Positions 9,761-55,424 of a DNA stretch of 64,000 nt are shown here, one piece after another. The notes under the pieces are model-generated. The model had not been told where the DNA came from and searched no databases. It saw nothing but the letters and a program-made list of their open reading frames with translations. The stretch's first letter is position 1. Each line of letters opens with the position of its first letter. Made by a program: the position numbers and the translations under genes. The stretch is taken from assembly GCA_035946435.1 (NCBI GenBank), contig DASYZH010000353.1, forward strand, positions 2,376-66,375, given 5' to 3'. Origin of the DNA: Puia sp. (GTDB lineage Bacteria; Bacteroidota; Bacteroidia; Chitinophagales; Chitinophagaceae).

Positions 9761-12208
9761 CTATTGTGAACTAAGATGATATTCAACCCCCTCCTTCGCC
9801 TCCCATTCCAATGTCCATACCTTTCCTTCTTTCCTTACCTGCAGGCCCGGAGCATCGGACCAATTCACCACACGCAACGGTCCATCATTCCTGATGCGGC
9901 ATATCCCGTCGATCCGCGGCCGGATCACCGCATCCTCTACCTTGCCATCCCGCCACGTAGCATCCACTACGAACCCGCCCCGCGCAACCAGTCCTTTAAA
10001 ACTGCCATTCGACCAGGCAGCCGGTAACGCCGGCAACAGCGACACGATCCCACCCTGACTCTGCAACAACATCTCCGCGACACCCGCCGTCCCGCCAAAA
10101 TTTCCATCGATCTGGAAAGGCGGACACGCGTCGAGCATATTGGGATAACAGCCACCCGCAGATGCCGTATCATCCTCCCGGGTCAGCCGCATCAATGTCC
10201 GGTAAAGCCGGTAGCAGTGATCCCCATCCCGCAGCCGCGCCCAAAGACACACCCGCCATGCCATACCCCAACCCGTCGCCTCATCGCCCCGCAACTCGAG
10301 GGAACGCTTTGCCGCCGCGGCAAGCGACGGCGTCTTATCCAGCGAGATCTCATCCGCAGGATACAACGAATACAAATGCGAGACATGCCGGTGATGCGGG
10401 TCCGGCGAAGGATAGTCCTTGTACCATTCCTGCAACTGTCCCTGCGCACCTATCTTGTACGGATACAGCCTCCCCCGGGCAGCCTTGACCCGCGCAGCAA
10501 AGGCTGCGTCCTCGCCCAGGATCGAATCCGCCGCCAGGATATGATCGAACAGATCCCGCATGATGCCCATATCCATGGTCGTGGCGATCGACACATCGGC
10601 GATCTTGTCCTTCCCATAGATAAAATCATTCTCGGGCGACATCGAAGGCGCCGTCACCAAATGACCGTCTTTACCTGGAATCAACCAATCCAATGCAAAC
10701 ACCGCCGCCCCTTTCATGAGCGGATAAGCGGTATCCCGCAAAAAACGCTCGTCTCGCGTATACAAATAATGTTCCCAAAGATGACGCACCAGCCAGGTTC
10801 CCCCCATCGGCCAGTTGGCCCATTTGGGCTCCCCTTTGCCGAACCCACCCACCGGAGTCGCCAGACCCCAGATATCGCTGTTGTGATGCACCACCCATCC
10901 CTTCGCCCCATAGTATTCCTTCGCCGCCCGCTCACCGGTAACCGCCAGCACCGGGATCAATCCGAACAAAGGCCCGGTCATCTCGGACAAATTGCAGACC
11001 TCCGCCGGCCAGTAGTTCATCTCTACATTGATATTGGTCGTATAGTTGCTGCTCCACGGCGCTTGCAGCTCGGCATTCCAAAGCCCCTGAAGATTAGCCG
11101 GCACTCCGGGTGTCCGCGAACTACTCAAAAGCAGGTACCGGCCGTATTGGAAATACAGCGATTCCAACCCAGGATCATGACCACCCCGGGTATAGGCAGC
11201 CAACCGCTCATCCGTAGGCAATGTATCGGCATCCGAATGCCCCAGTTCCAAACTTACCCTGTCCATGTAATGATGCATGTCGTCCAGATGCGCCGTCCAT
11301 AAAGCAGCGGAAGGCTTCGCCATCGCCTGATTCAAATAATCCAGCGCCCGTTCCTGCGCAGCGCCGTCGGGACAACGCAACCCGCCATTAAACCCCGTCG
11401 CCATCGAAACATACAATTCCACATCGGAAGCCCCGCTCACCCCGATGCCGCTACTATCCGTCTTCACTACGCCATCCTGGCTCACCGCCTTCATCACCAG
11501 GGACCAGGGCATGCCGTGACAGCTATCCCCATCCGCATAGACCACCGGATCTTTGCTATCTACATAGTTCGGTTCTACATGTGCCGGCGCCTTTCCACCC
11601 ATCGACCAGACGCCGTTACCCAAATCACGCCGCAAATAATGCAGCAAACTCACCGCATCGATCTTCAGTTGCAACGTAGCACCCGACTCAGCCGCCCAAT
11701 GCACCACGATCACCTGGTCCGGCGCCGACGCATACACCTCCCGGATATAACTTTTACCACCGATGGTATATTGGGTCCGGGCAACACCATCCCGAATATT
11801 CAGTGAACGCTGATAATTACGCATGCTTTCTTCACCCTCCTGGTGTATTCGCAGATCTCCCAACGGCAGATAACTCTCCGACCACTTTCCCTGCATCTTC
11901 CGGGCAAGCTTTCCTGCTTCCACATAGTCTTCCGCAAACAACGCCTTACGCAAGGCCGGCAGATACTGGCTCGCTCCCGGATTGATATGCTCCGGCTCCG
12001 GCCCACCCGACCACAACGACGCCTCATTCAACGCAATCCGCTCCTTCGCAATTCCGCCAAAATCCACGGCCCCCAACCGGCCATTGCCCACCAACAAGGC
12101 CTCCGTCCATACCTTCGCCGGCTGCCTGTACCATAACCGGTAATCACCTTGTGCAAAAAGCCCGGTCGCCGCAAGGACCAGGCCGCCCGTCAATAAAAGA
12201 ATTTTCAT
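9761..12208 (-). CDS. Glycoside hydrolase family 95 (alpha-L-fucosidase-like)
   Basis: LLVGNGRLGA, YFQYGRYLL, NYTTNINVEMNYW, SPEN, HRHVSHL and PPFQIDGNFG. Confidence 0.93.
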   Translation of the reverse strand: MKILLLTGGLVLAATGLFAQGDYRLWYRQPAKVWTEALLVGNGRLGAVDFGGIAKERIALNEASLWSGGPEPEHINPGASQYLPALRKALFAEDYVEAGKLARKMQGKWSESYLPLGDLRIHQEGEESMRNYQRSLNIRDGVARTQYTIGGKSYIREVYASAPDQVIVVHWAAESGATLQLKIDAVSLLHYLRRDLGNGVWSMGGKAPAHVEPNYVDSKDPVVYADGDSCHGMPWSLVMKAVSQDGVVKTDSSGIGVSGASDVELYVSMATGFNGGLRCPDGAAQERALDYLNQAMAKPSAALWTAHLDDMHHYMDRVSLELGHSDADTLPTDERLAAYTRGGHDPGLESLYFQYGRYLLLSSSRTPGVPANLQGLWNAELQAPWSSNYTTNINVEMNYWPAEVCNLSEMTGPLFGLIPVLAVTGERAAKEYYGAKGWVVHHNSDIWGLATPVGGFGKGEPKWANWPMGGTWLVRHLWEHYLYTRDERFLRDTAYPLMKGAAVFALDWLIPGKDGHLVTAPSMSPENDFIYGKDKIADVSIATTMDMGIMRDLFDHILAADSILGEDAAFAARVKAARGRLYPYKIGAQGQLQEWYKDYPSPDPHHRHVSHLYSLYPADEISLDKTPSLAAAAKRSLELRGDEATGWGMAWRVCLWARLRDGDHCYRLYRTLMRLTREDDTASAGGCYPNMLDACPPFQIDGNFGGTAGVAEMLLQSQGGIVSLLPALPAAWSNGSFKGLVARGGFVVDATWRDGKVEDAVIRPRIDGICRIRNDGPLRVVNWSDAPGLQVRKEGKVWTLEWEAKEGVEYHLSSQ

Positions 12209-15200
12209 CGCTGCGCTTTTTCTTGTTCGTAAATCCTGCTGATCACATCGGCCGGCAAGGCTTCCTGATAGATCCTCGGCCGGTCCACCCGGCCTTCAAA
12301 TATCCGCTCGCCGGGAAATTCTTCATTACGCCCCAACATCCATGTATTGGCGCCACCAAATAAATGTACGACTTTCTCCAGCTTCGTTTCCCCGCACAGC
12401 TGCCCATCGATGTAAAGCCGCAAACCGGCCTCATCACATACCCCCGTGAGTAAATGCCAATGACGTAGCCAGTCCGCCGGCAGATCCACCGTACAATCAC
12501 CACGCCCCCATCCGCCGGCAAAAAAGGTCAGCGTCCGCCCTCCACCAATCTGCAGGACATGCGTATCTCCATTGGTAAAGATATCCACGAGGCCATTCTT
12601 CGATGCTTCCGGAAATACCCAAACGCACATCGTCAACCGCTCGCCAAGATCATCCAGCGACCGGCTTGGGCCAAGCCACAAATACCGGGGCCGCCCGGTC
12701 AAATGGAATATGTTCTCCCATCCACTCCTGTCAGCCATCACCGTATCTCCAACCCAAACCCCATCCAAAACCACCGCTTCCCCGGGTGACTCGTACACCC
12801 GAAACCGCTGCGACAACCGGCCAACTCTCCATTGATGCCAGCCCACTACCGAAGCCTTCCACACCCGCGACCGCTCCCGCTCCTCCCCCGGCTGCAACTT
12901 CACCGTATCTACCCCCACCACCATCGAATCCACCAACAACGGCACGCGATACTCCATGGCCTCCCATCCCGTATTCTTCAATTCATAGCGCACAACCATA
13001 CTATCACCCCGGCGCACTACCGCACGCAGTCCCAATCCCACCGCAATAGGCTCCGCCGGCGGCGACCCATCGGGTTTCACAATATCCACCCCCCTCTCGA
13101 CGTCCCCGATCCGTAGCGTGATCCGCCCCAGCGGATACACCCGAAACGCTAAAGAATCCCGAACCTCCGCACGCGCCGGCACTAACACATTTTTTGCAGT
13201 CAGCAGCTTCTCACCCGCGTACAAACATACCCGCATCACACCCGTATCGCCGCTATTCCGCAAGCTAAATCGAGCCACCCCCCACTCGCCCGACACCAGT
13301 TCCGGCCGCGAGACGGCAAACTCCGCAACCGCAATCCGTGAATCTGCCGGCCGCGAACCATCAGCCGCTGGCGCCATCTCAAAAACCAGCCGCCCACCCT
13401 GCGCGATCAACGCATGCGGCACTTCGATCTTCCGCCAGCGCTCACCATTAAAACGCACGGCAGAAACATACTTCCCCTCCCCGCCAAGGATCACCAGCCT
13501 CCGCCCATTAGCCAAATGCACCACGACACGCCGAAACACCGGAGCCCCTAACGCATAGACAGGATCACCAGGGCACACCGGATAAAACCCCAACGCACTA
13601 AAGACATACCAGCTGGACATGGCACCAAGGTCATCATTGCCCGGCAACCCACCCGGCTGATCGCTATAGCGTTCATCCATGATCTTCCGAAGCCAATATT
13701 GCGTAAGATCGGCACGTCCCGCATAAGAGAACATATAGGGAACATGCTCCACCGTCTCATTATCGAACACGATGCGTCCATCCCGTAAGGCGGAATCCAG
13801 CCGAGAAGAAAAATACGCCGGCCCACCCAGCCGGTCGATCAATCCGGGTATATCCTGCGGCGCAAAATAGGTATATACCCAGGCATCCCCTTCTTTATAA
13901 CCCGAATTACCCGGCCGCATCCTTACAGAATCCCCATCCCGCGGAAGCAACAACAAAGAAGGCACATCCAACAGCCGCCGATAAGCCGTCGCAAACGATA
14001 GCAGACGCCGGTACATCCCCGTATCACCCATCACCGTCCGCGCATATTGCGCCAGTGCCCAATCATCATAGGCGTACTCCACCGTTCTCGTCACCGACTC
14101 AGGATACGTAGACGGAATATACCCGCTATCCAGGAAAACGCGCATGTCCCGTTGCAGGAACGGCCCGGTCACCAAACTCTTCAGCAGGGCCGCATATACC
14201 TCGCCCCGATCACCTGGCCGAATCCCCTTGAGCCACGCATCCACCACGATCGGAATACTATGATTGCCGGTCATCGACTCCGTAGGAAGATACCCTCCGC
14301 GGCGATAGGCTGCCATCAACGACCGCAACACGCCTGCCTGTTTTTCCGGATACAATAAGGTCAGCAAAGGATGTAACGACCGATAGGTGTCCCAGGGTGA
14401 GAACCCGCCATACCGGCCGGTGGCATCGACTACCCATGGCAAAAGCAACGAATGATACAACGCCGTATAGAACACGGTCTTCCGCCGCGCATCATCATCG
14501 GCAACCTCCACGACGCCCAACGCCCGTTCCCAGGCCCTTCGCGCAGCCAATCGCGTCGCGTCGAAATCGATCCGGCTCCCAACCCATACATCCACCCTGG
14601 GTCCGTCAAACGAATAAACCGTCCCGCCATCCACCACCCGGCTCCCGGTAGCCGCTTCACTAAACCCCACACTTACCCCAGCCGTATCCCCCACAAAGAC
14701 GGCATGCCGCCCGGCCCCAAACGAGATCCGAAAGACGCCGCCATCCGGCGCTGCCGTCGCTTCAATCACCGTCCCATCGTCGGTTAACCGGACCCGATAA
14801 TACCCCGGCTCGGCCACCTCATCAGCATGCGAGAACGGCCTCGGGCGCAAGGCTAAGTCATCGGGCCGTCCTGCCGGACCGTCGGCGCTCGCAGCCATGA
14901 CGAACAACCGTCCCCCCGACCCGCCAGGATACCCACTGTGATGATCCTTGCAACTAAAAACAACAATCGAGCTGTCACCGTAGTCATAACCTCCCCGTCG
15001 CGTCTCCGGCGTGAGCTGCCAATAACCCGATACCGCTACCGCTCCGGGATACGTCCCACCTTCATCACCCCAACGAGTATAGACATCGCTCTTCGATGTC
15101 CCAATGAAAGGATCTACAAATCCATATTCCGGCGAAGGTGTCAAAACCGAAACCCGCCGCGATGCGCCTTCCTCCGCCTCCACCATCACCTGCCGCGCAT

Positions 15201-17886
15201 CCCGCCCGTCTTCCTCAAATATCGACAAGTCATTCTCCCCACGATGCAACCAGCACCCGGGGATATATAACCCATTCACCGGTATCTTCTCCGGATACCT
15301 ACCCAGATTATGCCCATTGACCCATATCGACCCATGACCAAGACCGGTAGGAATAACCCGCCATACCGGCCGAAACCCGCTATCCACCGGCACGACAAAA
15401 GAAGCCCGCCACCAGCACGGACCCGCCGTATCAAGCGCCGAAGAGCCGGCCGCTACCCCCGCCGCCGCCACACCTCCAGCCGCAAGCTCAGCCTGCCCCC
15501 CAGCCCCTCCACGCATCTTCCACCCACGAACGGCAACCGGGTCCACCCACGGCGAGAACCGCACCGGCTGATCGATCCCTCCCTCATTGGAATAATTCTC
15601 CACAAACACCGTGAGCACCACCGGCCGTGCCAACGTATCGATCCGGTCGATGAGGACATTAAAAGGCGCATTCCATCCGGCATGATAAGCCAGCCGTCGC
15701 CCATTCACATACACCGTCGCATTTTCATCGACACTGGCAAAACGCAATTCCGCCTGCCGCGCGCCCACCGGCAAAGCCGGTAACTCCACCCGAAACCACG
15801 CATGTCCCGGCTTCTTGTCAAAAGCATCATCACCTATCGTATAAGGCCTCCAGCCGGAAATTGAATCCTTACTGATCTTCCAGCCATTCAACACCGTCAC
15901 CGCCGGCGCCCCGCGAACCAGCAACGCCCGCCCATACAACCCCTTTCGAGCAACAGGATCCAGCGGCCCCAAATAGGCCGCCAAATCCTCCCGCCCGTCA
16001 TGCGCGGTAAATACCGCCAGTAAATGCCGGCCCCGCGTCAGATGCAAAGGGATCACGCCGTCTTTTATAGCCACCGGTCCCAATGGCACGCCATCCAGGA
16101 AGGCCCGCGCCCGGTCGGCGCCTTCTACCAGCAACGTATAATCGCCGCCACTGTCCACGGTCAACGGCGCCCGGTACCACGCATCCGCCGTTGTATCGCC
16201 ATCCGAGCCCATCTGCAAGGGCCATTCGCTACGCTTCCAACCGGAATCATCATAACCCGGCGCCGCCGGCGAAGCCGCCGGCACTCTCCTCCACCCGTGA
16301 ATAGCACCCTTCGTCTCCATCCGCTTAAAATCCCCCGAACCAACATACTTCAACACCTCATCCGCCGTAAACACAAGCGCATTCCCATCCCCCTCCCCCT
16401 CCGTCTCCATCCGCCCCGCGGCAAAAGTCCCCACATACGCAGGCCCGCAAATAATTTTATCATCGACCACCCAGGTTCGATCCGCCATCGTCCGATCCAT
16501 GACCAGCACACGCAACCCACCCACCCGGTATGTCCCCACCGAAGGCCCCACCGTCACCGACAGGTCGCCAGCAGAAAAATGCAACCGTCCATGCTCACCC
16601 ACTTCGCCGTACACGATCAACGTATTTCCAACGATCCCAAATATTCGCAGGGTATTGCCCTTCAAAGTCCCAAATCTCCGTACATACGGAAAGATCTCTC
16701 CGGGCATCAACTGCACTGTGTCCTTGTCGATAACCACATTTGTCGAAGCAGCCGAAGCATTATCCAAAAACACGATCTCCCCCTCCGGCCCCCGCCGCTC
16801 ATTCACCCGCACAGAATCACCCACGACCAGCCCCTGCACCGTATCACCCACACTATTCTCGAGCAGCGAAGCAAAGCTTCGCGCAAAATAGGCTGCCCGT
16901 TTGAACACATAATAGATCGGCCGCAAATCCCCGCCCTGCCCCACCGCAGCGCCATAGTCATAGGACGCGGCGTCACCGTCGCTATTCTTATAACCAAAAT
17001 TGCTCCCCCCATGCGCCATATAAATGTTGTAGCCATTCCCGCCACGCGCAATGATCTTCCAGGTCCGGCGCTCAAACAACGCCGCCTCGGCAGTACCCGA
17101 TCCATACCCGTTGTACCAAACACTCCAATACTCCGTAGTCATCCACGGATTCGGCCGCGAAACATCATCGAGGTTCAGTGAAGTACCTGCCGGATCACTA
17201 TCATGATGCAACCCGCTAAAAAAGTACGGGACCTCGATCCCATGCGCCAACGCGACGCTCCGCAACCATGTAAAATACGCATCGGGCATCGCCGTCCCCC
17301 AACCCGATGGATGCTCGTTCTCGAGCTGCACCAGGATCACGGCGCCACCATGATTGATCTGGTTCGCCGCCACAATGGGCAACAACTGGTCAATGAAACG
17401 CCCGACCGCCGATTCGAAAACAGCATTCGGCTCGCGCACCCGCAACCCCGGCTTAAACTTCAGCCACAACGGATACCCGCCGAGATCCCATTCCGCACAG
17501 TAATACGGCCCCACCCGCACAATGGCATACATGCCCATCGTCTTTACCAGCTGCAAAAACGCGCCCAGATCATGGTCACCCGTAAAATCGAAAACCCCTT
17601 CCAGGGGTTCGTGAAAATTCCAGAAGGTATAGATCTCGACACAATTGAAACCAGCTCGCTTCAACCGCAATAACCGGTCCGCCCACAACGCCCGCGGCAC
17701 CCGCGCATATTCGATCCCCCCGGAAACCAAAAAGGTCCGCTGCCCATGTATCAAAAAACCCCTCTTGTCAAAATCGATAAACGGCCGTGCAGAAGCCGCC
17801 GCCGGAAAGATGTGATCGTTAGGAGGCTGGGCAAGCGCCGTCGAAAAAACAAAAAGCAGAACACTATTGTAAAACCAATGTCGCAT
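12205..17886 (-). CDS. Multi-domain glycosidase: GH35 beta-galactosidase + beta-sandwich domains + GH92 alpha-mannosidase + Fn3-like + LamG domain
   Basis: The start was moved to ATG 17886 (signal peptide MRHWFYNSVLLFVFSTALAQ). GH35 motifs: RVGPYYCAEW, QLENEH, TTEYWSVW. GH92 motifs: VDPFIGT (~15100-15125), YKEGDAW, PGNDDLGAMSSWYVFSALGFYPVCPG. A C-terminal LamG-like WHLLTGV...LYIDG is present. Confidence 0.88.
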   Translation of the reverse strand: MRHWFYNSVLLFVFSTALAQPPNDHIFPAAASARPFIDFDKRGFLIHGQRTFLVSGGIEYARVPRALWADRLLRLKRAGFNCVEIYTFWNFHEPLEGVFDFTGDHDLGAFLQLVKTMGMYAIVRVGPYYCAEWDLGGYPLWLKFKPGLRVREPNAVFESAVGRFIDQLLPIVAANQINHGGAVILVQLENEHPSGWGTAMPDAYFTWLRSVALAHGIEVPYFFSGLHHDSDPAGTSLNLDDVSRPNPWMTTEYWSVWYNGYGSGTAEAALFERRTWKIIARGGNGYNIYMAHGGSNFGYKNSDGDAASYDYGAAVGQGGDLRPIYYVFKRAAYFARSFASLLENSVGDTVQGLVVGDSVRVNERRGPEGEIVFLDNASAASTNVVIDKDTVQLMPGEIFPYVRRFGTLKGNTLRIFGIVGNTLIVYGEVGEHGRLHFSAGDLSVTVGPSVGTYRVGGLRVLVMDRTMADRTWVVDDKIICGPAYVGTFAAGRMETEGEGDGNALVFTADEVLKYVGSGDFKRMETKGAIHGWRRVPAASPAAPGYDDSGWKRSEWPLQMGSDGDTTADAWYRAPLTVDSGGDYTLLVEGADRARAFLDGVPLGPVAIKDGVIPLHLTRGRHLLAVFTAHDGREDLAAYLGPLDPVARKGLYGRALLVRGAPAVTVLNGWKISKDSISGWRPYTIGDDAFDKKPGHAWFRVELPALPVGARQAELRFASVDENATVYVNGRRLAYHAGWNAPFNVLIDRIDTLARPVVLTVFVENYSNEGGIDQPVRFSPWVDPVAVRGWKMRGGAGGQAELAAGGVAAAGVAAGSSALDTAGPCWWRASFVVPVDSGFRPVWRVIPTGLGHGSIWVNGHNLGRYPEKIPVNGLYIPGCWLHRGENDLSIFEEDGRDARQVMVEAEEGASRRVSVLTPSPEYGFVDPFIGTSKSDVYTRWGDEGGTYPGAVAVSGYWQLTPETRRGGYDYGDSSIVVFSCKDHHSGYPGGSGGRLFVMAASADGPAGRPDDLALRPRPFSHADEVAEPGYYRVRLTDDGTVIEATAAPDGGVFRISFGAGRHAVFVGDTAGVSVGFSEAATGSRVVDGGTVYSFDGPRVDVWVGSRIDFDATRLAARRAWERALGVVEVADDDARRKTVFYTALYHSLLLPWVVDATGRYGGFSPWDTYRSLHPLLTLLYPEKQAGVLRSLMAAYRRGGYLPTESMTGNHSIPIVVDAWLKGIRPGDRGEVYAALLKSLVTGPFLQRDMRVFLDSGYIPSTYPESVTRTVEYAYDDWALAQYARTVMGDTGMYRRLLSFATAYRRLLDVPSLLLLPRDGDSVRMRPGNSGYKEGDAWVYTYFAPQDIPGLIDRLGGPAYFSSRLDSALRDGRIVFDNETVEHVPYMFSYAGRADLTQYWLRKIMDERYSDQPGGLPGNDDLGAMSSWYVFSALGFYPVCPGDPVYALGAPVFRRVVVHLANGRRLVILGGEGKYVSAVRFNGERWRKIEVPHALIAQGGRLVFEMAPAADGSRPADSRIAVAEFAVSRPELVSGEWGVARFSLRNSGDTGVMRVCLYAGEKLLTAKNVLVPARAEVRDSLAFRVYPLGRITLRIGDVERGVDIVKPDGSPPAEPIAVGLGLRAVVRRGDSMVVRYELKNTGWEAMEYRVPLLVDSMVVGVDTVKLQPGEERERSRVWKASVVGWHQWRVGRLSQRFRVYESPGEAVVLDGVWVGDTVMADRSGWENIFHLTGRPRYLWLGPSRSLDDLGERLTMCVWVFPEASKNGLVDIFTNGDTHVLQIGGGRTLTFFAGGWGRGDCTVDLPADWLRHWHLLTGVCDEAGLRLYIDGQLCGETKLEKVVHLFGGANTWMLGRNEEFPGERIFEGRVDRPRIYQEALPADVISRIYEQEKAQR

Positions 17887-20056
17887 ATTTCGCGTAGATC
17901 CGCCGCACCGCCGACAAAGCATCGCCCACCGGCTGCTCTGAATACCCACCACCCGTGCTATTCACCCATTTCCACTCCCAATCTTTGATGGCGGCATCAA
18001 AAACCGTCTCCTCCATGCGGTCGCCCCGCTCCATCTTCTGTCGCAAGAAAACAAAATATTGCTCCCACCGCGGCTTATAAAAATCCCTGATCAAGCCCGA
18101 CCACTGCCTGCACGCATACTCGTGTAACCCGCTTTCCTTATCGCCCCACAACGTGATCAGATCACGGGCATTCTTCTCGTACAGATCAGCTTCGGCAACC
18201 GTGGCCCCGCAACGCCGCGCCTCCCCGATCCACCGCCCCAGCAAAAACTCCCGCCGCGTGGCCAGCAACGCATCCATATCATCCATCAAGTCTAAAAACC
18301 GCGCGGTACAGCTATCAAAAGCAGCAAAGTCATGATCCAGATAGGCCAGCACCCACCGTTGTTGTAACGGCAGCGCATAATTGGCCAGCACCTGCCGGGT
18401 AATATCTACCAGGTCGTACTGAAATCCGTCCCCGGAGCCCAGCGAATCCGAAGCCCGCACCATCAAACCCCAGGCACGAGCCAACGCACGCGGCTCATAG
18501 TCCAGCTTCGTCCGCACCCGGTCCGCCCATACCTCGGTCGTCGGCCGGGCCACAATGATCGACTCCGGACCGCCTTCACCCAGACCACCGGCATAGACAG
18601 TGCTGGCCAGGATACGCCACGCCGCCAGCGCATCGGCATTGACCCGGCCATACCGGGCATCGACATACGCCGGCAACCAGCGAGGCAGCACGATCGCGCT
18701 ATCCCGCCACGTATTATCCAGCATCAGCTGGTACAAAGCCGGATTCTCTTCGATGCCCTCGGGGGCCAATCCAATACCGGACAACCTCCGCGAAGCCGTA
18801 TCATGCAACGCGAAAGCAGGCCCCGAAGCCACCGCCTCCATCCGCCCCCATAAAAAAGTATTGCCACCAAAATTGTTGAGCATATTCCAGATCCACGGCT
18901 TGCCAAAGTATGCGGCGGTCCGGTTCCACACCGGATGACTCTCGCTGTACAGATCCAGCAGGATCATGTGATCGTCCGGCACCGCTTCCAACAACGCCTT
19001 GATCTGCGCATTCCCCCAAAACGAAGCGGCATAATGGAACATCCACCCCTGCATCACCCACACCGCCCGCGGATCGGCCACCGCCATCGAAGCATACACT
19101 TTCTTGCTGATCGCGGAAAGATAACCCGGTTCATTCGAAGGCGGCTGATTTTCATTAAATGTATCTGCGGAATAAAAATGATCCGTCCCATACGCCGAAG
19201 TCTGCGCCTCTATAAATCGCCGGCCGATCACTTCAAAAAGGCTATCCTCGGGATCAAGAATATACACGTCATCAAAACCCGCACCCCAGTTGGTCCGCTT
19301 GACCTTAGCCCGGGGGAAATGTTGTGCAAAGCTGGGCGGCACATGCCCCGTAAAGGCGGCTAACACCGGCTTCATCCCCATCGCCCGCTCCGCAGCCAGA
19401 ATTTTCTTCTGCAATAGAAAATGCGTGTCCATCCAATGCTGCGGCAATGGCCCGCCCCAGCCATCCAGGTTGCCCATCCAAAACCAGGAGAAATACGCCG
19501 GTCCGCAAAAGAACCGCTGCAGCTCGGCGTCGGAAAAACCCAGGCCCCGGTATACCTTCTGCCATATGGCCTCTTCCCCGGTAATGGCCAGCGGCATATT
19601 GATGCCGTTCAATGTCATCCAGTCGATCTCCCGCTGCCAGCGGGCCCAATCCCACCACGCCATCGAATAATTGAACGTACAGTAGTTCAGATAATACCGG
19701 TATTGATACGGCGTGACCCGCCGCACCCGCGAACCCACCACCGGTAATACTGCCGGCAGCCGTAGGTCCACGCCATCCCAGGAAATAAAACTATGACACC
19801 AGGAACGCAGATATTCATTCAACGCCGATCCCACCGACAATCCATTACTGCCGCGCAATACCACCTTACCCCGCCGGCTCTCCAGCTCGTAGACATCTTT
19901 CCCGTTAACCGCCGGGATATACTCGACGACAAAGGCAGCCGCCCGATCGCCTACTACCCGCCGCACAAAAGCATCCGCCGCCACCTTATCCAGCTGCGAA
20001 AAACAAGTCCCGCCGCTGACCAGCAGCATCAGTAATAGCCCAACCCTGTTTCTCAA
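17864..20056 (-). CDS. Glycoside hydrolase family 89, alpha-N-acetylglucosaminidase
   Basis: YRYYLNYCTFNYS, WERE-like WQREIDWM, DTFNENQPP, PEGIEENP, NARDLITLWG and YACRQWSGL. Confidence 0.95.
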   Translation of the reverse strand: MRNRVGLLLMLLVSGGTCFSQLDKVAADAFVRRVVGDRAAAFVVEYIPAVNGKDVYELESRRGKVVLRGSNGLSVGSALNEYLRSWCHSFISWDGVDLRLPAVLPVVGSRVRRVTPYQYRYYLNYCTFNYSMAWWDWARWQREIDWMTLNGINMPLAITGEEAIWQKVYRGLGFSDAELQRFFCGPAYFSWFWMGNLDGWGGPLPQHWMDTHFLLQKKILAAERAMGMKPVLAAFTGHVPPSFAQHFPRAKVKRTNWGAGFDDVYILDPEDSLFEVIGRRFIEAQTSAYGTDHFYSADTFNENQPPSNEPGYLSAISKKVYASMAVADPRAVWVMQGWMFHYAASFWGNAQIKALLEAVPDDHMILLDLYSESHPVWNRTAAYFGKPWIWNMLNNFGGNTFLWGRMEAVASGPAFALHDTASRRLSGIGLAPEGIEENPALYQLMLDNTWRDSAIVLPRWLPAYVDARYGRVNADALAAWRILASTVYAGGLGEGGPESIIVARPTTEVWADRVRTKLDYEPRALARAWGLMVRASDSLGSGDGFQYDLVDITRQVLANYALPLQQRWVLAYLDHDFAAFDSCTARFLDLMDDMDALLATRREFLLGRWIGEARRCGATVAEADLYEKNARDLITLWGDKESGLHEYACRQWSGLIRDFYKPRWEQYFVFLRQKMERGDRMEETVFDAAIKDWEWKWVNSTGGGYSEQPVGDALSAVRRIYAKYATLVLQ

Positions 20057-21633
20057 TAATTAGGATTTTGTGTGATGACACCCTTGCTTTCGTCAATGAT
20101 CTCCTGCGGAATCGGCATATAATAATCCTTGGGCCTCGAGAACGTCCGTGCAGGGATGACCACCGCCCCATTATACGGCGCCAGCGGCGACGCCGTCTTG
20201 GGCTTGCTCACGATGGTATCCAGGTCGATTATTTTGTCCTTGTCCCAACGCATAAGATCCTGCCAACGTACATTCTCACCGCCCAGCTCCACGCGGCGTT
20301 CGTGGATCAACTGTGGCATACCTGCCCCCGATTCCGGCATCAACCCCGCACGAAGCCGCACAGCATTCAATTCCGCATCCCCGGCCCCCGGGCCATTGAG
20401 CCTTATCTTTGCCTCTGCCGTCATCAAATATACGTCGCTGCTGCGCAGCAACGGCTGCTTCAACCCGAAATTGATCGACCCGCTGTTATCGCTCAAAAAA
20501 GCCGTGTATTTCCGGATACAATAACCCGTCGTCGTCATACTGGGCAACAACCTGCCGGTATTTTGCCCCACCCTGCCCGTGAACATCTGGTACGCATCAC
20601 CCGACGACACCGGGACCATATTTGTCTGGTAGGGAATCGAATCACCCACCTGGATCAGGGTCGCACGCTTCCGGAACGTGTCCGCCGCCTCGAACTCATC
20701 CGCGAAATTCTCGGTGGGATGATGGAAACCCCATCCCTGCCAGGCCCGTGGCGTATAATAGTAAGAGATCGCACTCTGTAACGCATTGGTGGATGTCTGC
20801 ACTTCGTTCCACACGGCGAAAAGCAATTCCGTATTGTTCGGCTGCGCATTGAAATCGAAGTTGTCGCTATAATGCGGCGCCAACGCATAATTGGGGTCGC
20901 TGACAACCATGCTGCCATACTGGATAGCCTGCTGGAATTTATCCTCGAAAAGATAGAGTTTGCACAACATACCCCAGGCCGCACCCTTGCTCACGCGTCC
21001 CTTATCCGCATCGTCATATGTTTCCGGTAAAAGATTCGCGGCCTGAAGCAGATCCGACTCGACCAACGCCCGCACCGTATCGACGGATGATTTGGGCACG
21101 TTGTAATTGGTAGCGCTCAGATTCTTTTCCGTGATCACCGGCACATCTCCATAGATCTCGCTCAGGATAAAATAGGAATAGGCTCGCAGGAAATAGGCCT
21201 CCCCCATCGATCGGTTCCGGATCGAGCTGTCCATGATCGGCACCTTGGGAATATAGTAGATCGCGTTGTTCGCCCGGGCGATCTGCTCATAGGCAAAAGG
21301 CCAGGTGATATAGATCAGCTGTAAGGTCGGATCGATGTTGAACCTGCCGATGCTGATAAAATCCGGATGGTCCCCATCCACGGAAATATCATCACTCTGA
21401 TCGTCGAAGGCATAAAGATCATGCCCGATCCAGTCTTCCGTGAATAATACATTGTAGATACCGTTTATCCCCGCAATAACATCGTTTTGATTCCGCCAGA
21501 AATTGTCGGTCGTATATACTCCGCTGGGGCTCTGGTCCAGCGGATGCTTGATACACCCAAAAAGCAGCGCCATGCTGGTAACCGCCGAAAAAAGCAGTAT
21601 GAAAAAGGATTTATAATTGAATTTGCGTTTCAT
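20053..21633 (-). CDS. SusD/RagB family lipoprotein
   Basis: The start was moved to ATG 21633. Lipobox LLFGC, GEAYFLRAYSY, GRVSKGAA and ERRVELGGE..RWQDL. Confidence 0.93.
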   Translation of the reverse strand: MKRKFNYKSFFILLFSAVTSMALLFGCIKHPLDQSPSGVYTTDNFWRNQNDVIAGINGIYNVLFTEDWIGHDLYAFDDQSDDISVDGDHPDFISIGRFNIDPTLQLIYITWPFAYEQIARANNAIYYIPKVPIMDSSIRNRSMGEAYFLRAYSYFILSEIYGDVPVITEKNLSATNYNVPKSSVDTVRALVESDLLQAANLLPETYDDADKGRVSKGAAWGMLCKLYLFEDKFQQAIQYGSMVVSDPNYALAPHYSDNFDFNAQPNNTELLFAVWNEVQTSTNALQSAISYYYTPRAWQGWGFHHPTENFADEFEAADTFRKRATLIQVGDSIPYQTNMVPVSSGDAYQMFTGRVGQNTGRLLPSMTTTGYCIRKYTAFLSDNSGSINFGLKQPLLRSSDVYLMTAEAKIRLNGPGAGDAELNAVRLRAGLMPESGAGMPQLIHERRVELGGENVRWQDLMRWDKDKIIDLDTIVSKPKTASPLAPYNGAVVIPARTFSRPKDYYMPIPQEIIDESKGVITQNPNY

Positions 21634-21652
21634 ATTGATCTGTTTTGACGGC

Positions 21653-24600
21653 TTAAAAATTAATGGTTCCACCTACAGTAAAGCTCCTGGCAGCCGGATA
21701 CTGCGCCAGATCCACACCACGCTGTAGTCCCGGCGTCTGCGAGCCAACGCTCGTATAACCCAGCTCCGGCGTGTATCCCGGATATTTGGTCATCATAAGT
21801 ACATTATAGCTGGTGGCATACACCCGGATCTCCGGAACCTTCCAGTCATTCACGGTAAACCGCGGCAACGTATAACCCAGTGTCAGGCTCTTCAGCGAAA
21901 GATAGTTGCCGTTGAATACCCACATGCTGGACGACCGGTAGTTATTATTCAGGTTATTGATGCTCAACCGCGGAATACTGTTGCTGGTTCCCTGCCCATG
22001 CCACCTGTTCTTCTGATCGGCATACCAGTTGTAAACCTGCGTAGCATCGAGCCCCGACAACCGGTCGGCATCATAAAGCTGGAAGCCCGTGGCGCCTACG
22101 AAATTAAAGCTCAGGTCAAAATGTGCATAATTCACCGACCCGTTGAACCCAAATACAAATTTCGGATTCGGATCGCCCAGCCGCACACGGTCACTGTCGC
22201 TGATCATACCATCCCCATTAATGTCCCTGAACCGAACGTCGCCTGGCTTGATATTGGGCTTGTTGGGGTCATTGGCGACATTCGGGTCCTTGTCGATATC
22301 GCTTTGCGATTGGTATAACCCATCAGCCTTGAAACCATAGAAAGAAGCGATCGGCTGCCCCTCGTACGTACGCGCAATATCGGCATTCTCGCGTCCATAG
22401 GGGGTTGAAGCCAAATACGTGCTCGACCCATAAAGTTTAGTGATCTTGTTACGCAGGAATGAACCGTTGGCGCCGATAGAGTAGCTCACCTTCCCCACGG
22501 TATTCCGGTAAGCCAGCTCGATCTCGATGCCATGGTTGTTCAATTTGCCTAAATTGAAATCAGGCAAGTTCACGTTACCCGGATCATCCGGCAGATTGGT
22601 CTGCGCGCCAAAGGTCTCGACAAGCTGGAAAGGGATCAGCATGTCCGACGTATTTTTATTGAAATAAGTTATCGTACCGGTCAAATGGTTATTCAACGCC
22701 GCAGCCTCTAACGAGATGGTAGTTGTCACAGCCCGCTCCCAGGTAATATTGGGATTGGCAAGCGACGTGATCACCGCTCCCGCCTGGTTGGTAGTATTCG
22801 ACGCACCATAATTGTATCCATAGCCGCTGGTCTGCTGGATGATGCTCATGTACTGAAAGTCCCCTACATTTTGGTTACCCAGCTGTCCCCAGCCGCCCGT
22901 GATCTTCAGCATCGGCAGCACATTCTTAATGCCCCCGTCATAGAATTTCTCGTCGGAGATCCGCCAGCCGGCCGAGAATGCCGGGAAATAACCCCAACGC
23001 TTCCCGGGCGCAAACTTGCTCGAACCATCCGCACGAAACGTGGCCGTCAGCAGGTACTTGCCCGCATAGGCATAGTTGGCCCGCACAAATTCGGACTGCA
23101 GCCCCCAGGGATTGAAATTGTATCCATTGTTGGAGATCGAGCTGCTCCCAAGACCCAACACCCGTTGATCCGAACTCGTATCGCTAAACCCGCTACGGGA
23201 TGCCACGAAATAATTACCCGTAAAGGTCTGCGCCGAATACCCGCCGGTCAACGTCAGCGCATGCTCGCCAAAACTATGATTATACGTCAGATAATATTCC
23301 TCCAGCAACGTGGTTTGCTTGCTATATGACTGTTGCAACGAAGCGAGTGCAGGCCCGCGCGTCTGATTCGGCATGGCATTGTCGAATTCGTAATACTCGT
23401 CGGTATTGTGATCGTAGCCATAGTTGGCGCGGATCTTTAACCCCTTTACGATCTCCAGCTCCGCATAAAAATTGGCCAGCACCCGGTCGATATTGTTGTA
23501 GCGTTGCGTCTCCTTAGCAGTAGCCACGGGATTATTGATGTCCCCTAGCTGGTTATCGGCCTGCGAGGTGCCCCAGCTTCCATCGGGATTCGTCACCGGG
23601 ATCGCCGGATTGAACCGTATCGCACTCCAGACAGTGCCGGTTTGCGAAGAGTGCGTGTTAGCTTCCGCATTTCCCGAGGCGCCATTCACCGTACCCGTAG
23701 TATAGGAGTACACCGCATTCTCACCGATCTTTAGCCGGCTCCCAATCTTATGCTCGCTATTGATCCGGAGACTATACCGCTTGAAATAGGTGTTGGGGAT
23801 CATCCCCTTTTCATTATAATAGTTACCCGAAAAGCTGTAGTTGGAATATTTATTGCCACCCCGCATAGCAACATCGGCATTCGCCACATCCCCATTACCC
23901 AGCAATGCCCGTTGCCAGTCCGTGCGCTGCGTAGCATAATACGAGTTGCTCCAAATGGTTGGCACACTCAGGCCATCGTTCGTATAGGCTTCGTTCTTGA
24001 GCGCTACGAGATCAGGCGCCTTCAGCATATCGATGAACTTTACGGGTGACTTGACCCCACCGTAAACATTCGCCGAAACCTTTAGCAGGTCCTCGTAACT
24101 ACCCTTCTTCGTCGTGATCAGCACCACCCCGTTGGCCGCCCGGCTTCCATAGATGGCGGATGCGGAAGCATCCTTGAGGATTTCTATCGACGCGATATCG
24201 TTCGAGTTGACGTCATTGAGGCCGCCCGACGGTACGCCATCGATCACAACCAGCGGATCGGAATTGTTGATCGTTCCCGTACCCAACACCCGGATACTGG
24301 GAACACTGCCGGGTGAACCATCGTCACGGACAATATCCACACCCGTGGCACGACCCTGGATCGCATCCGCTGCATTGCTCGTAGGCAGGTTCCTGATATC
24401 GTCCCCTTTTACACTACTGATACTACCGGTCACATCCCGCTTTTTCTGCGTACCGTAACCCACAACAACGGCATTCTCCAAGCCGGTCGCATTGAGCTGC
24501 ATCTGCGCCGAAACCGTCCGCTGTCCCGCGCTAACCGCGATCACCTGGCCTTTATAACCCACATACGTAAGGGCCAGCTCCGCACTCCCCGACACCATGA

Positions 24601-25114
24601 TGGTAAAATTACCGGCATCATCCGTCGTGGTCGTCCTGCTGGTATTGACAACTTTTACCGTCACTCCACCAAGACCCTTGCCCGTCTCATCCAACACCTT
24701 CCCCTTCACAGGGCGGTCAGCCGTATCGCTGGCCATGGGCTCGGGCTCCGGCTCCGGCGCCGGCGAGATGATCACCTTCCGCTGCCCGATGGTATAGGTG
24801 AACTTACGGCCCAATACCATGCGCAGGATGCTCCCCAGCGGGGCATCCGTGACATCCAGATCGACCTTTCCCAATTCCTTGAGATAGTCGTTGTTATAAA
24901 AGAATTTGTAATGACTTTCTTTTTGGATCGTGCTGAAGATCAAGCTGGCGTCCGCCTGTTTGAAATGCAGGCTGAAGGTCTCCTGGGAATACCCTCTGGC
25001 GGATACCTGTAAACAGGCCGCCATCACCAACAAAAAACTCAGTTTCATAAGCAGAAGCAATTTCAGGCATGGGGATAGCCCCCCGAAAGGTTTCACCTTT
25101 CTGGATTTCTTCAT
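21653..25114 (-). CDS. SusC/RagA TonB-dependent transducer with N-terminal STN signalling domain
   Basis: Long N-terminal extension (MKLSFLL...SQETFSLHFK), VVVGYGTQKK, ILKDASASAIYGSRAANGVVLITTK and NPNITWE. It lies downstream of FecR. Confidence 0.95.
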   Translation of the reverse strand: MKKSRKVKPFGGLSPCLKLLLLMKLSFLLVMAACLQVSARGYSQETFSLHFKQADASLIFSTIQKESHYKFFYNNDYLKELGKVDLDVTDAPLGSILRMVLGRKFTYTIGQRKVIISPAPEPEPEPMASDTADRPVKGKVLDETGKGLGGVTVKVVNTSRTTTTDDAGNFTIMVSGSAELALTYVGYKGQVIAVSAGQRTVSAQMQLNATGLENAVVVGYGTQKKRDVTGSISSVKGDDIRNLPTSNAADAIQGRATGVDIVRDDGSPGSVPSIRVLGTGTINNSDPLVVIDGVPSGGLNDVNSNDIASIEILKDASASAIYGSRAANGVVLITTKKGSYEDLLKVSANVYGGVKSPVKFIDMLKAPDLVALKNEAYTNDGLSVPTIWSNSYYATQRTDWQRALLGNGDVANADVAMRGGNKYSNYSFSGNYYNEKGMIPNTYFKRYSLRINSEHKIGSRLKIGENAVYSYTTGTVNGASGNAEANTHSSQTGTVWSAIRFNPAIPVTNPDGSWGTSQADNQLGDINNPVATAKETQRYNNIDRVLANFYAELEIVKGLKIRANYGYDHNTDEYYEFDNAMPNQTRGPALASLQQSYSKQTTLLEEYYLTYNHSFGEHALTLTGGYSAQTFTGNYFVASRSGFSDTSSDQRVLGLGSSSISNNGYNFNPWGLQSEFVRANYAYAGKYLLTATFRADGSSKFAPGKRWGYFPAFSAGWRISDEKFYDGGIKNVLPMLKITGGWGQLGNQNVGDFQYMSIIQQTSGYGYNYGASNTTNQAGAVITSLANPNITWERAVTTTISLEAAALNNHLTGTITYFNKNTSDMLIPFQLVETFGAQTNLPDDPGNVNLPDFNLGKLNNHGIEIELAYRNTVGKVSYSIGANGSFLRNKITKLYGSSTYLASTPYGRENADIARTYEGQPIASFYGFKADGLYQSQSDIDKDPNVANDPNKPNIKPGDVRFRDINGDGMISDSDRVRLGDPNPKFVFGFNGSVNYAHFDLSFNFVGATGFQLYDADRLSGLDATQVYNWYADQKNRWHGQGTSNSIPRLSINNLNNNYRSSSMWVFNGNYLSLKSLTLGYTLPRFTVNDWKVPEIRVYATSYNVLMMTKYPGYTPELGYTSVGSQTPGLQRGVDLAQYPAARSFTVGGTINF

Positions 25115-25169
25115 AAATTTGTTTTGGTGGGGGAAGAGTGCCACCTCTTCCCCCTGTTTATTATTCTAG

Positions 25170-26258
25170 TTACAGGTCCGGCGTTAGCCGGACCTTTTTG
25201 CCCTCGATACTGTACTTGAATTTGGTGGTCATCTGGAGGATATCCAGCACCTGCCCGATCGTTTCCTTTTCAAAGACCCCGCTCAAATGCGCCTCCTTCA
25301 ACCGCTCATCCGCGATGTCGATCTGCACGTCATAACGCCGCTCCAACATTCTGGCCACCTCTTCGAATGTTTCATTGCTGAATGCCAGCCGGTTCTCTAT
25401 CCAGGCCGTTTCCGGCAATGAATCGTCCCCGGCCTTCGGCACACCCTGCACCTGATAATGCAAAGCATTCCCCACCAGATCCGGCGTGGCGCCCGTTTCG
25501 GGAACAGGGTTCATCACGGTCAGCTTTTCGTTGGGGCTCAACACGATCTTCTTGTCCGGCTCGCCATCCATCATCACCTGTACCTTCCCACTGATCAGCG
25601 TGGTCGATACCGCCGGTTCATCCCGGTAGGCCTTGACATTGAACCGTGTCCCCAACACCTTGATGGTTATCTTGCCGGCATGTACCAAAAACGGCATGCC
25701 TTCATGTTTCGCTACGTCAAAAAAACCTTCCCCGTCCAGCGTGACCTCCCGCTTGCCGCCGGTAAACACATCGGGATAATACAGCCGGCTTCCGGCATTC
25801 AACCACACCGTGGTCCCATCGCCCAGTATAATCTTGCTCCGGTGACCATTGCCCACATTCAACATCTTATCGACGTACTGCATCCGGGAAGGATCCCGGT
25901 CGCTCCGGAAGTACCAAACCGCAGTCCCCGCAACCGCCAGGATCACCACTGCAGCAGCCATCCATCGCCACATCCGCGGCATCCGGTCGGGCCTCTGGTC
26001 TTCCATGGTTACCACTTCTTTTAACCTGCCGGCAAGCCGTCTCCAACCATTACCCGCCAGCTCTTCTTCGGGGATATTCCGTTCAAAATGCTCGGGGCTC
26101 CCCTTCAGGGACCCCACAATCGCTTCCAATAAACCATAGGATGGGTTATCCGCCAGCAGACGCTCTAATTCCTGCAGTTCCTCAACCGATGCATCTTTCC
26201 CGAGTTTTTTTGCCATTAGTTCGATGATCCTCGAACTGTTCATCAAATTTTCAGTCAT
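25170..26258 (-). CDS. FecR family anti-sigma factor
   Basis: One TM helix, LGDGTTVWLNAGS, EVTLDGEGFFDV, VLGTRFNV and LERRYDV. The start could be 26258 or 26243. Confidence 0.92.
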   Translation of the reverse strand: MTENLMNSSRIIELMAKKLGKDASVEELQELERLLADNPSYGLLEAIVGSLKGSPEHFERNIPEEELAGNGWRRLAGRLKEVVTMEDQRPDRMPRMWRWMAAAVVILAVAGTAVWYFRSDRDPSRMQYVDKMLNVGNGHRSKIILGDGTTVWLNAGSRLYYPDVFTGGKREVTLDGEGFFDVAKHEGMPFLVHAGKITIKVLGTRFNVKAYRDEPAVSTTLISGKVQVMMDGEPDKKIVLSPNEKLTVMNPVPETGATPDLVGNALHYQVQGVPKAGDDSLPETAWIENRLAFSNETFEEVARMLERRYDVQIDIADERLKEAHLSGVFEKETIGQVLDILQMTTKFKYSIEGKKVRLTPDL

Positions 26259-26289
26259 GCTGACACAAGGACACAGCAAGTCACAGAAA

Positions 26290-26333: not shown

Positions 26334-26894
26334 TTAGACCCTGATCCGGTGCTGTTGTAGCGAAGGTTTTAGCACCGCTTCCAGCTTTCTAAGCGCAATG
26401 GTAAGCTGGGTCGTAACGGTCTTATAGGAGATAGACAAAATGGCCGCGACTTCGGCCGCCGAGAGACCATCCTCTTTTACCAGCTTGAATATCAGCTTAC
26501 ATCGCGGTGGCAAGCCCTCGATGGCCGCCTCGATCCGCCGCCGCAGCTCATCCGTGACCAGCAGCTGCTCGGGATCAGGACTCAGATAAAAATGATGCAC
26601 AGCCTGCTTCCCCAGGTCCGTGTCCAGCCGGTTCTTCGACTGCCGCAGATAGTTGACGGCCGTATTCTTCACCGCCACATATAAATAGACGGAAATATTC
26701 TCGATCCGGTCGATCCGGCCCCGGTTATGCCAGAGCTTCAGAAAGACATCATTGACGATCTCTTCGGACAACTCCCTGTTCTGTACAAAAGTAAAAGCAA
26801 ACTGAAACAGCCGGAATACATTGGCCTCATAGAACTCCCGGAAAGCGAGTTCATCATTCTCGAATTGTATTCGATGCAGTAGTAATGGTTGCAT
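26334..26894 (-). CDS. ECF RNA polymerase sigma-70 factor
   Basis: EEIVNDVFLKLW, YLYVAVKN, LPPRCKLIFKL and EVAAILSISYKTV. It is adjacent to fecR. Confidence 0.95.
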   Translation of the reverse strand: MQPLLLHRIQFENDELAFREFYEANVFRLFQFAFTFVQNRELSEEIVNDVFLKLWHNRGRIDRIENISVYLYVAVKNTAVNYLRQSKNRLDTDLGKQAVHHFYLSPDPEQLLVTDELRRRIEAAIEGLPPRCKLIFKLVKEDGLSAAEVAAILSISYKTVTTQLTIALRKLEAVLKPSLQQHRIRV

Positions 26895-48502: not shown

Positions 48503-48511
48503 CTGCCTGGC

Positions 48512-51214: not shown

Positions 51215-51235
51215 CCGCCGCTTATTCGTTTATCA

Positions 51236-55413: not shown

Positions 55414-55424
55414 TTTTTCTTTTT

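Follow-up and report, generated by a model that had tools for sequence, protein, structure and literature searches.

A polypeptide in which two catalytic modules act on the same glycan has been described from a polysaccharide utilization locus (PUL) of Bacteroides eggerthii, the CE15-GH8 enzyme (PMC8417218). For the GH92 family, the closest described enzymes are the Ca2+-dependent inverting exo-α-mannosidases BT3130, BT3990, BT3965 and BT2199 of Bacteroides thetaiotaomicron (6f8z, 2wvx, 6f91 and 2wvy) and the five-domain α-1,2-mannosidase NnGH92 of Neobacillus novalis (7nsn). In BT3130, Trp390 binds O4 of the mannose at the −1 subsite; the +1 subsite is variable, and its elements include the 580-loop and Trp67, which forms its "roof" (PMC5930347). 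The accessory β-domains of NnGH92 pack on its core and are needed for structural integrity (PMC10167667). For the GH35 family, the closest are long enzymes in which a TIM barrel is followed by several β-sandwiches, such as those of Desulfurococcus amylolyticus (8qqh) and of Aspergillus, Trichoderma and Penicillium (5ifp, 3og2 and 1tg7). Here we analyzed a stretch of 64,000 nucleotides from Puia sp. (contig DASYZH010000353.1 of assembly GCA_035946435.1; hereafter the window), in which one open reading frame (ORF) joins a GH35 module to a compact GH92 module, two Ig-like domains and a LamG domain. We consider it likely that this ORF encodes a genuine bifunctional exo-glycosidase that bears a signal peptide and belongs to a SusC/SusD PUL under the control of an extracytoplasmic function (ECF) sigma factor and its anti-sigma factor. 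The fusion is a rare, recurrently evolved multicatalytic carbohydrate-active enzyme (CAZyme) that marks both a conserved PUL and a divergent GH92-LamG clade.

The ORF lies on the minus strand and is uninterrupted over 12205..17952 when counted from a GTG, with its stop codon at 12205-12207. The likely ATG start is at 17886, which agrees with the N-termini of homologues and gives a protein of 1893 aa plus stop (12205..17886; ORF list, Pfam, NCBIfam and full-length homologues). The original prediction of one ~1890-aa ORF at 12205-17886 was therefore accurate in its coordinates, and its order of domains was also correct. The protein begins with MRHWFYNSVLLFVFSTALA followed by QPPNDHIF, and residues 1-19 (17830..17886) are predicted, from the sequence and from conserved N-termini, to be a typical type-I signal peptide cleaved between ALA and QP. 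Since this signal peptide has no lipobox Cys, a soluble periplasmic location is predicted, and the fusion protein is probably periplasmic. The region 12000-18000 was also observed to have the highest G+C content in the window (0.57-0.60) and its strongest negative GC skew (-0.30 to -0.34).

Comparison with stand-alone relatives revealed that the two enzymes are joined end to end (15121..15165, ...ASRRVSVLTPSPEYGF followed by VDPFIGT). Stand-alone GH35 relatives end 5-8 residues past the motif AE.AASR, while in stand-alone GH92-LamG relatives the signal peptide is directly followed by xxY and then VDPFIGT. At the joint the fusion reads ...AEEGASRRVSVLTPSPEYGF and then VDPFIGT, so that the C-terminus of GH35 meets the mature N-terminus of GH92 across a linker of ~10 residues and the GH92 signal peptide is lost. 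No stop codon or frameshift was found at 15121-15165 in the window or in homologues, the original prediction having singled out 15130-15160 as the place to look for one. Searching a word index of 5.8 billion proteins returned ~25 clusters of homologues of 1790-1960 aa with 96-100% query coverage and 56-86% identity (from NCBI, ENA, JGI and Logan assemblies), as well as 12 clusters of triple fusions, both sets being clustered at 90% identity. The fusion is nevertheless rare: among 1.84 billion representatives at 50% identity, the joint is covered by no more than three long proteins and a handful of fragments. GH35 and GH92 are indeed normally separate, as had been stated at the outset: among 301 genomes of the same family, the joint occurs in one frame only in the genome of the window. 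Four further candidates for the fusion (P0188, P0233, P0191 and P0178) were rejected, as they are, respectively, a GH2 protein, a GH35 with PATR, a tandem GH92, and a GH35 with ricin and type IX secretion system domains.

The GH35 catalytic TIM barrel occupies residues 44-330 (16897..17757; Pfam PF01301, E 3.6e-70, 237.5 bits against a cut-off of 27). The ENE and TEYW motifs noted in the original prediction are both present and do represent the catalytic positions. In HMMER alignments to solved GH35 structures, the acid/base is E191 in ENEH (189-192; codon 17314-17316), which aligns with the position mutated from E to A in 6eon and also matches the acid/base of 3d3a; the nucleophile is E252 in TTEYW (TEYW, 251-254; codon 17131-17133), which aligns with the Glu in SEFW of 3d3a. 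Both residues are invariant in 38/38 GH35 sequences and 15/15 fusions. Residues 331-915 (15142..16896; Pfam, AlphaFold2 and Foldseek) comprise accessory β-sandwich domains, including BetaGal_gal-bd at 823-885. The AlphaFold2 model of residues 1-915 had a pLDDT of 78, and the best Foldseek match of this half was 8qqh (E 1e-40, TMq 0.68), with fungal and plant GH35 enzymes also matching. This is why the ~550 aa of β-sandwiches noted in the original prediction are better seen as an ordinary part of a long GH35 than as a spacer: the whole half matches long multi-domain GH35 enzymes. We predict that the module is a β-galactosidase. An assignment as an exo-β-glucosaminidase was rejected (NF041127, 110 bits against a cut-off of 1500, over residues 37-200 only). 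Close relatives of the GH35 module alone (45-52% identity) were also observed in Armatimonadota (Chthonomonadales and Capsulimonadaceae; loci L049, L054, L057-L059, L061, L066, L072, L075, L077-L080 and L082). As these have no GH89 or GH92 nearby, the GH35 clade extends beyond the GH89/GH92 locus and beyond the phylum.

The GH92 module consists of an N-terminal β-sandwich (residues 923-1071, 14674..15120; Pfam, AlphaFold2 and Foldseek) and an (α/α)6 catalytic domain (residues 1106-1505, 13372..14571; Pfam and structure alignments). Both parts were recognized by Pfam (PF17678, 82 bits against a cut-off of 34.5; PF07971, E 4.6e-114, 382 bits against 24.6), and the module as a whole passes the NCBIfam GH92 model TIGR01180 (357.8 bits against 249.55). 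It also gave a partial match to the NCBIfam model lectin_1 (NF035929, 224 bits), which was rejected as an assignment because it falls far under the cut-off of 800 while TIGR01180 passes. Residue equivalents were established by alignment to GH92 structures, read with the native numbering of PMC5930347 and PMC10167667. The KEG and GNDD motifs that the original prediction had offered as candidate catalytic residues correspond to the general acid and the general base: E1332 in YKEG (1330-1333; codon 13891-13893) is the equivalent of BT3130 E535 and BT3990 E533, and D1419 in GNDD (1416-1419; codon 13630-13632) is the equivalent of BT3130 D637 and BT3990 D644. At the −1 subsite, alignment indicates that Asp353 and Met400 of BT3130 are kept as D1166 and M1205, Gly92 aligns to S990, and another Trp, such as the invariant W1151, might fill the site of Trp390. 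FDNETVEH (1374-1381) had been flagged as atypical. It does differ from the common NEP motif, but it is no defect and falls within the variation of the family: its counterparts in the alignment are HGNEPSHH in BT3130 and HGNQPIQH in BT3990, the N (N1376) and the E/Q are kept, and the motif as a whole is invariant in the clade. The acid, the base, D1166, M1205 and the N and E of this motif are invariant in 72 GH92-LamG sequences down to ~44% identity and also in the 15 fusions. We predict an enzyme of the α-mannosidase type.

That the GH92 module looked compact was borne out, as it is ~590 aa long in comparison to ~720-750 aa in characterized enzymes. In the N-domain, ~75 residues are absent (the Pfam match covers profile positions 1-147 of 236), and in the catalytic domain 400 aa span 451 profile positions. 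Relative to BT3130, sequence alignment points to the deletion of the 8-residue Trp390 loop, the Trp67 segment and ~15 residues of the 580-loop, and the 72-sequence consensus has these deletions and that in the N-domain in common throughout the GH92-LamG clade. On this alignment, the apparent loss of active-site loops, rather than FDNETVEH, is the real peculiarity of the GH92 in the window. Because the catalytic machinery is kept while the loops that set specificity in characterized GH92s are lost, the clade is a good candidate for a new specificity.

Throughout this clade, the GH92 is followed by two Ig-like domains and a LamG/ConA-like lectin domain. An AlphaFold2 model of residues 906-1893, based on the 72-sequence alignment (pLDDT 88.3, pTM 0.86), consisted of a β-sandwich, an (α/α)6 barrel, two Ig-like sandwiches and a jelly roll, and its top Foldseek matches were all GH92 structures (2wvy, 6f8z, 6f91 and 7zgm; TMt 0.71-0.77). 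The two segments initially called Fn3-like are modeled as Ig-like sandwiches at residues ~1518-1605 (13072..13335; AlphaFold2, with no Pfam family above threshold) and ~1614-1700 (12787..13047; AlphaFold2 and Pfam). The fn3 name does not hold, as no Pfam fn3 match was obtained in this region even at E values up to 5. The only hit was a sub-threshold one to CARDB (E 0.079), so that the second sandwich is weakly CARDB-like, and a precomputed CARDB match exists for the homologues P0069 and P0095. The C-terminal LamG domain was correctly called: Laminin_G_3 (PF13385) matches residues 1746-1882 (1.2e-14, 55-57 bits against a cut-off of 27.6), and the strands modeled by AlphaFold2 for residues 1705-1893 (12208..12774) match lectin-like jelly rolls in Foldseek. 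The motif FFAGGWGRGD of this domain is invariant.

To place the fusion among its relatives, 83 loci were classified by stop-to-stop ORFs and blastp with segments of the window. The order GH89, GH35, GH92-LamG is constant and only the state of fusion varies. In type A (38 loci, nearly all from Mucilaginibacter and Pedobacter with a few Chitinophagaceae) the genes are separate, and a gene for an HGSNAT-like protein lies between GH35 and GH92-LamG. This is a membrane protein of 375 aa (HGSNAT_cat/Acyl_transf_3, 32.9 bits against a cut-off of 22; e.g., L002 8747-9874 and L023 12935-14062), and it is paired with GH89 in ~38/53 loci. Type B, to which the window belongs, has GH89 followed by the GH35-GH92-LamG fusion, with no acetyltransferase in the locus and usually GH95 next. 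In type C, a single GH89-GH35-GH92-LamG protein of ~2700 aa is found (Puia dinghuensis, Flavitalea sp. BT771 and a Puia metagenome-assembled genome, MAG). GH89 and GH35 are fused and GH92-LamG is separate in type D, and type E has three separate genes and no acetyltransferase. Among these genomes, a Chitinophagaceae MAG is the closest to the window (86% identity), and overall the hosts are Chitinophagaceae and Sphingobacteriaceae of soil and rhizosphere. In a maximum likelihood tree of the GH92-LamG part, all type-B proteins form one clade (SH-aLRT 100), for which the tree program reported an amino-acid composition that deviates from the rest of the family, and types C and D lie in another clade whose sister (L015) is unfused. 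Since types B and C fall in separate clades, the latter with an unfused sister, the GH35-GH92 joint arose at least twice. Stand-alone GH92-LamG proteins with their own signal peptide are widespread. Two additional variations were noted among these loci. In several Mucilaginibacter loci (L023 17540-19834; L029, L031, L040, L041 and L064) an ordinary full-size GH92 of 764-783 aa with full Pfam coverage lies directly after GH92-LamG, which suggests two different α-mannosidic linkages in the substrate. In a Puia MAG (L008 15778-20070) the frame that holds GH95 after the fusion is 1431 aa long and may be a GH95 fused to a further module.

In the window, the fusion is the sixth gene of a minus-strand operon in which genes overlap or are separated by gaps of no more than 54 nt. 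The operon comprises an ECF sigma factor (26334..26894), a FecR-type anti-sigma factor (25170..26279), a SusC-like TonB-dependent transporter (21653..25144), a SusD-like protein (20053..21672), a GH89 α-N-acetylglucosaminidase with NAGLU N, TIM and C domains (17864..20056), the fusion, and a GH95 of the α-L-fucosidase family (9761..12208). The SusC/SusD pair is co-oriented with CAZymes and a regulator, the arrangement that defines a PUL, and this layout is conserved in relatives. The GH89 stop overlaps the ATG of the fusion by 23 nt, and the stop of the fusion overlaps the GH95 ATG (ATGA). No endo-acting enzyme was found in the PUL, and an endo-mannanase and an α-galactosidase were likewise absent from it. 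The special GH35 and the GH92-LamG are single-copy in this genome, in which HGSNAT-like homologues occur on other contigs and outside any PUL; they either lie at the end of a contig or have genes for a HAD phosphatase and a subtilisin-like protease as neighbors. Upstream of the operon, on the same strand, is a gene for an FG-GAP/ASPIC-UnbV repeat protein of ~1100 aa (26897..30226); in distant relatives this protein is a conserved neighbor of the sigma and anti-sigma genes of the PUL (L001 1-948; L003 1-2810). A second PUL is located on the minus strand at 45590-58550 in the window, with SusC, SusD, three tandem GH38 paralogues and then a sugar transporter of the major facilitator superfamily.

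Based on these data, we propose the following order of events. SusC and SusD would import a small hetero-oligosaccharide, a small substrate being expected because the locus has no endo-acting enzyme. In the periplasm, GH95 would remove fucose (Fuc) from the oligosaccharide, and GH89 would remove α-N-acetylglucosamine (GlcNAc), after N-acetylation of α-glucosamine (GlcN) where the acetyltransferase exists. The GH35 module would then remove β-galactose (Gal) and the GH92 module α-mannose (Man). Fusion would set a 1:1 dosage of the two modules and bring two trimming steps into proximity. The LamG domain, which is predicted to pack rigidly on the core, may bind glycan or may stabilize the shortened GH92, as the accessory domains of NnGH92 do.

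Several observations weigh against this account. No description of a GH35-GH92 fusion or of a GH89/GH35/GH92-LamG locus was found in the literature, Lapébie et al. (2019) mentioning GH89 only in passing. The orthologue in Puia sp. P3, a genome labeled "complete" (L074 10001-15470, NZ_CP192583.1), needs at least five frame changes, which indicates either that the gene is dispensable and a pseudogene there or that the long reads contain indel errors. The nucleophile loop of GH35 (residues 250-260) was modeled with a confidence below 50, and the loop losses imply that the GH92 may not be a classical α-mannosidase or may need its tail domains. In addition, the HGSNAT-like gene is absent from all fused forms, as well as from three unfused loci (L017, L021 and L044). 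That the frameshifted copy exists, that most relatives keep the genes separate, and that the source is a draft of 418 contigs (6.9 Mb, 97.9% complete) could be taken to mean that adjacent genes were merged by assembly or sequencing error in a MAG. We regard such an artefact as very improbable indeed, because full-length homologues from independent assemblies span the whole length: the ~25 double and 12 triple fusion clusters come from independent projects and assemblers. Moreover, at the joint the intervening gene and the GH92 signal peptide have been cleanly removed, which differs from reading through an intergenic spacer, and even in the Puia sp. P3 copy residues 798-1498, joint included, lie in one frame. 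A second alternative is that one of the modules has lost its catalytic activity and functions purely in carbohydrate binding or as a scaffold, the slim GH92 acting, for example, as a lectin. A core that is ~130-160 aa short and without the Trp390 loop and 580-loop, the partial lectin_1 match and the low-confidence loop in GH35 are what such a module might show. However, the catalytic residues of both modules are invariant across the 72 and 38 sequences, respectively, the lectin_1 score is far from its cut-off, and stand-alone GH92-LamG with its own signal peptide persists widely. A dead module is thus improbable, and a bifunctional enzyme remains the better explanation.

The nature of the substrate can be narrowed less well. 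The original prediction proposed a glycan with adjacent β-Gal and α-Man residues, which is too narrow given the partners of the fusion and for which no evidence of Gal-Man adjacency was found. GH89, the HGSNAT-like acetyltransferase of most relatives, and GH95 in the window indicate that the glycan also carries α-GlcNAc or α-GlcN and probably fucose. Galactomannan, which was listed among the substrates to try, is unlikely because the locus has neither an endo-mannanase nor an α-galactosidase. One tentative candidate is a head group based on α-GlcN, from plant or fungal glycosyl inositol phosphorylceramides (GIPCs; GlcN(Ac)-α1,4-GlcA-α1,2-Ins-P-Cer with Gal, Man and Ara) or from glycosylphosphatidylinositol (GPI) anchors (Man-α1,4-GlcN-α1,6-Ins), in which case the compact GH92 would release Man that is linked to a non-mannose aglycone. 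The predicted composition, α-GlcN together with Gal and Man, recalls the head groups of plant GIPCs and also fungal GIPCs and the cores of GPI anchors. In plants, GIPC head groups consist of GlcNAc or GlcN linked α1,4 to GlcA, which is linked α1,2 to Ins-P-Cer, and they are extended with Gal, Man and Ara (PMC8099651). Such a substrate would fit the NAGLU-type GH89 with its HGSNAT_cat/Acyl_transf_3 partner, which mirrors the lysosomal pair for terminal α-GlcN, and also the soil and rhizosphere hosts, the small glycan expected where no endo-enzyme is present, and the deleted +1-subsite loops of GH92. The case is entirely inferential, however: the locus contains no α-glucuronidase, phospholipase or ceramidase-type enzyme that might release a head group, the acetyltransferase is missing from it in the fused lineages (that of the window among them), GH95 is not accounted for by the cited GIPC composition, and the literature search revealed no link, GIPC together with PUL giving only generic PUL papers.

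Eukaryotic glycoprotein glycans with α-GlcNAc caps are an alternative of equally low probability. GH95, GH89 and GH35 would peel Fuc, GlcNAc and Gal, and GH92 would trim mannose. Glycans of this kind include α1,4-GlcNAc mucin-type O-glycans, amoebal GlcNAc-α-O-Ser/Thr glycans and yeast mannans with terminal α-GlcNAc. Gut mucin degraders classically attack capped O-glycans with GH89, GH35 and GH95, families that papers list together, control by ECF sigma and anti-sigma factors is typical of host-glycan PULs, and the full-size GH92 of some Mucilaginibacter loci would also be in keeping. Yet the hosts are soil bacteria and not gut mucin degraders, the GH92-LamG that is always present would have no role on mucin O-glycans as these hold no mannose, the HGSNAT-like gene implies a free-amine GlcN that such glycans lack, and GH95 is found only in loci of the window type.

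Whatever the substrate, the existence of separate, pairwise and triple fused states, together with a joint that arose at least twice, is strong genomic evidence that the three glycosidases act on one glycan. Gene fusions can be read as "Rosetta stones", and that of GH35 and GH92 defines a locus that is conserved among soil Chitinophagaceae and Sphingobacteriaceae and is entirely uncharacterized. Because relatives have these enzymes encoded by neighboring genes, the fusion does not represent a new type of enzyme but points to a pathway, as yet unstudied, that is directed at one particular complex sugar. We hypothesize, with little confidence at present, that the GH89/(HGSNAT-like)/GH35/GH92-LamG locus is a dedicated bacterial pathway for glucosamine-based glycolipid head groups, that the compact GH92-LamG has a new specificity (e.g., for Man-α1,4-GlcN or for Man on a non-mannose aglycone), and that repeated fusion reflects selection for processive, stoichiometric trimming. 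The glycans of GIPCs and GPI anchors form a very large soil carbon pool, and no microbial system that degrades their head groups was found described in the literature searched. If the hypothesis is true, it would open a route by which the sphingolipid glycans that are most abundant in plants and fungi are turned over; if the substrate is an ordinary glycoprotein glycan, the fusion is a tidy example of multicatalytic CAZyme evolution.

Comparison with the described systems shows how far the likenesses extend. The GH35 of the window has the layout of the long GH35 enzymes, although it is only ~20% identical to 8qqh, and it shares its ENE acid/base and TE nucleophile motifs with the Bacteroides enzymes (3d3a and 6eon). 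It differs from known GH35s in having ENEH, invariant in its clade, where ENEY is usual, and in a C-terminus that runs on into a second enzyme. Its GH92 has the same two-domain fold as the B. thetaiotaomicron enzymes and shares with them the equivalents of the acid Glu, the base Asp, Asp353, Met400 and the Asn of NE(P). It is, however, 25-28% identical to them and ~130-160 residues shorter, its clade adds a constant Ig-Ig-LamG tail, and in the window it sits behind a GH35. NnGH92 likewise combines a GH92 core with non-catalytic β-domains, and the pTM of 0.86 over 988 residues suggests that the tail domains modeled here pack on the core in a similar way. NnGH92 differs in that its accessory domains, CBM32 among them, do not include a LamG, and in that it has one catalytic module, a full-size core and a BT3990-like +1 subsite. 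The relatives also recall the lysosomal NAGLU (GH89)/HGSNAT pair of heparan sulfate catabolism, as they pair a NAGLU-family GH89 with an HGSNAT_cat membrane protein, and by analogy this suggests that terminal α-GlcN may be acetylated before hydrolysis. In contrast to the lysosomal pair, the setting is a bacterial PUL without sulfatases or uronidases, the partners are a β-galactosidase and an enzyme of the α-mannosidase type, and the locus in the window has no acetyltransferase. Lastly, in comparison to the CE15-GH8 enzyme, the fusion in the window pairs a retaining GH35 with an inverting GH92, and the modules of its family are found unfused, fused in pairs, and in triple fusion with GH89.

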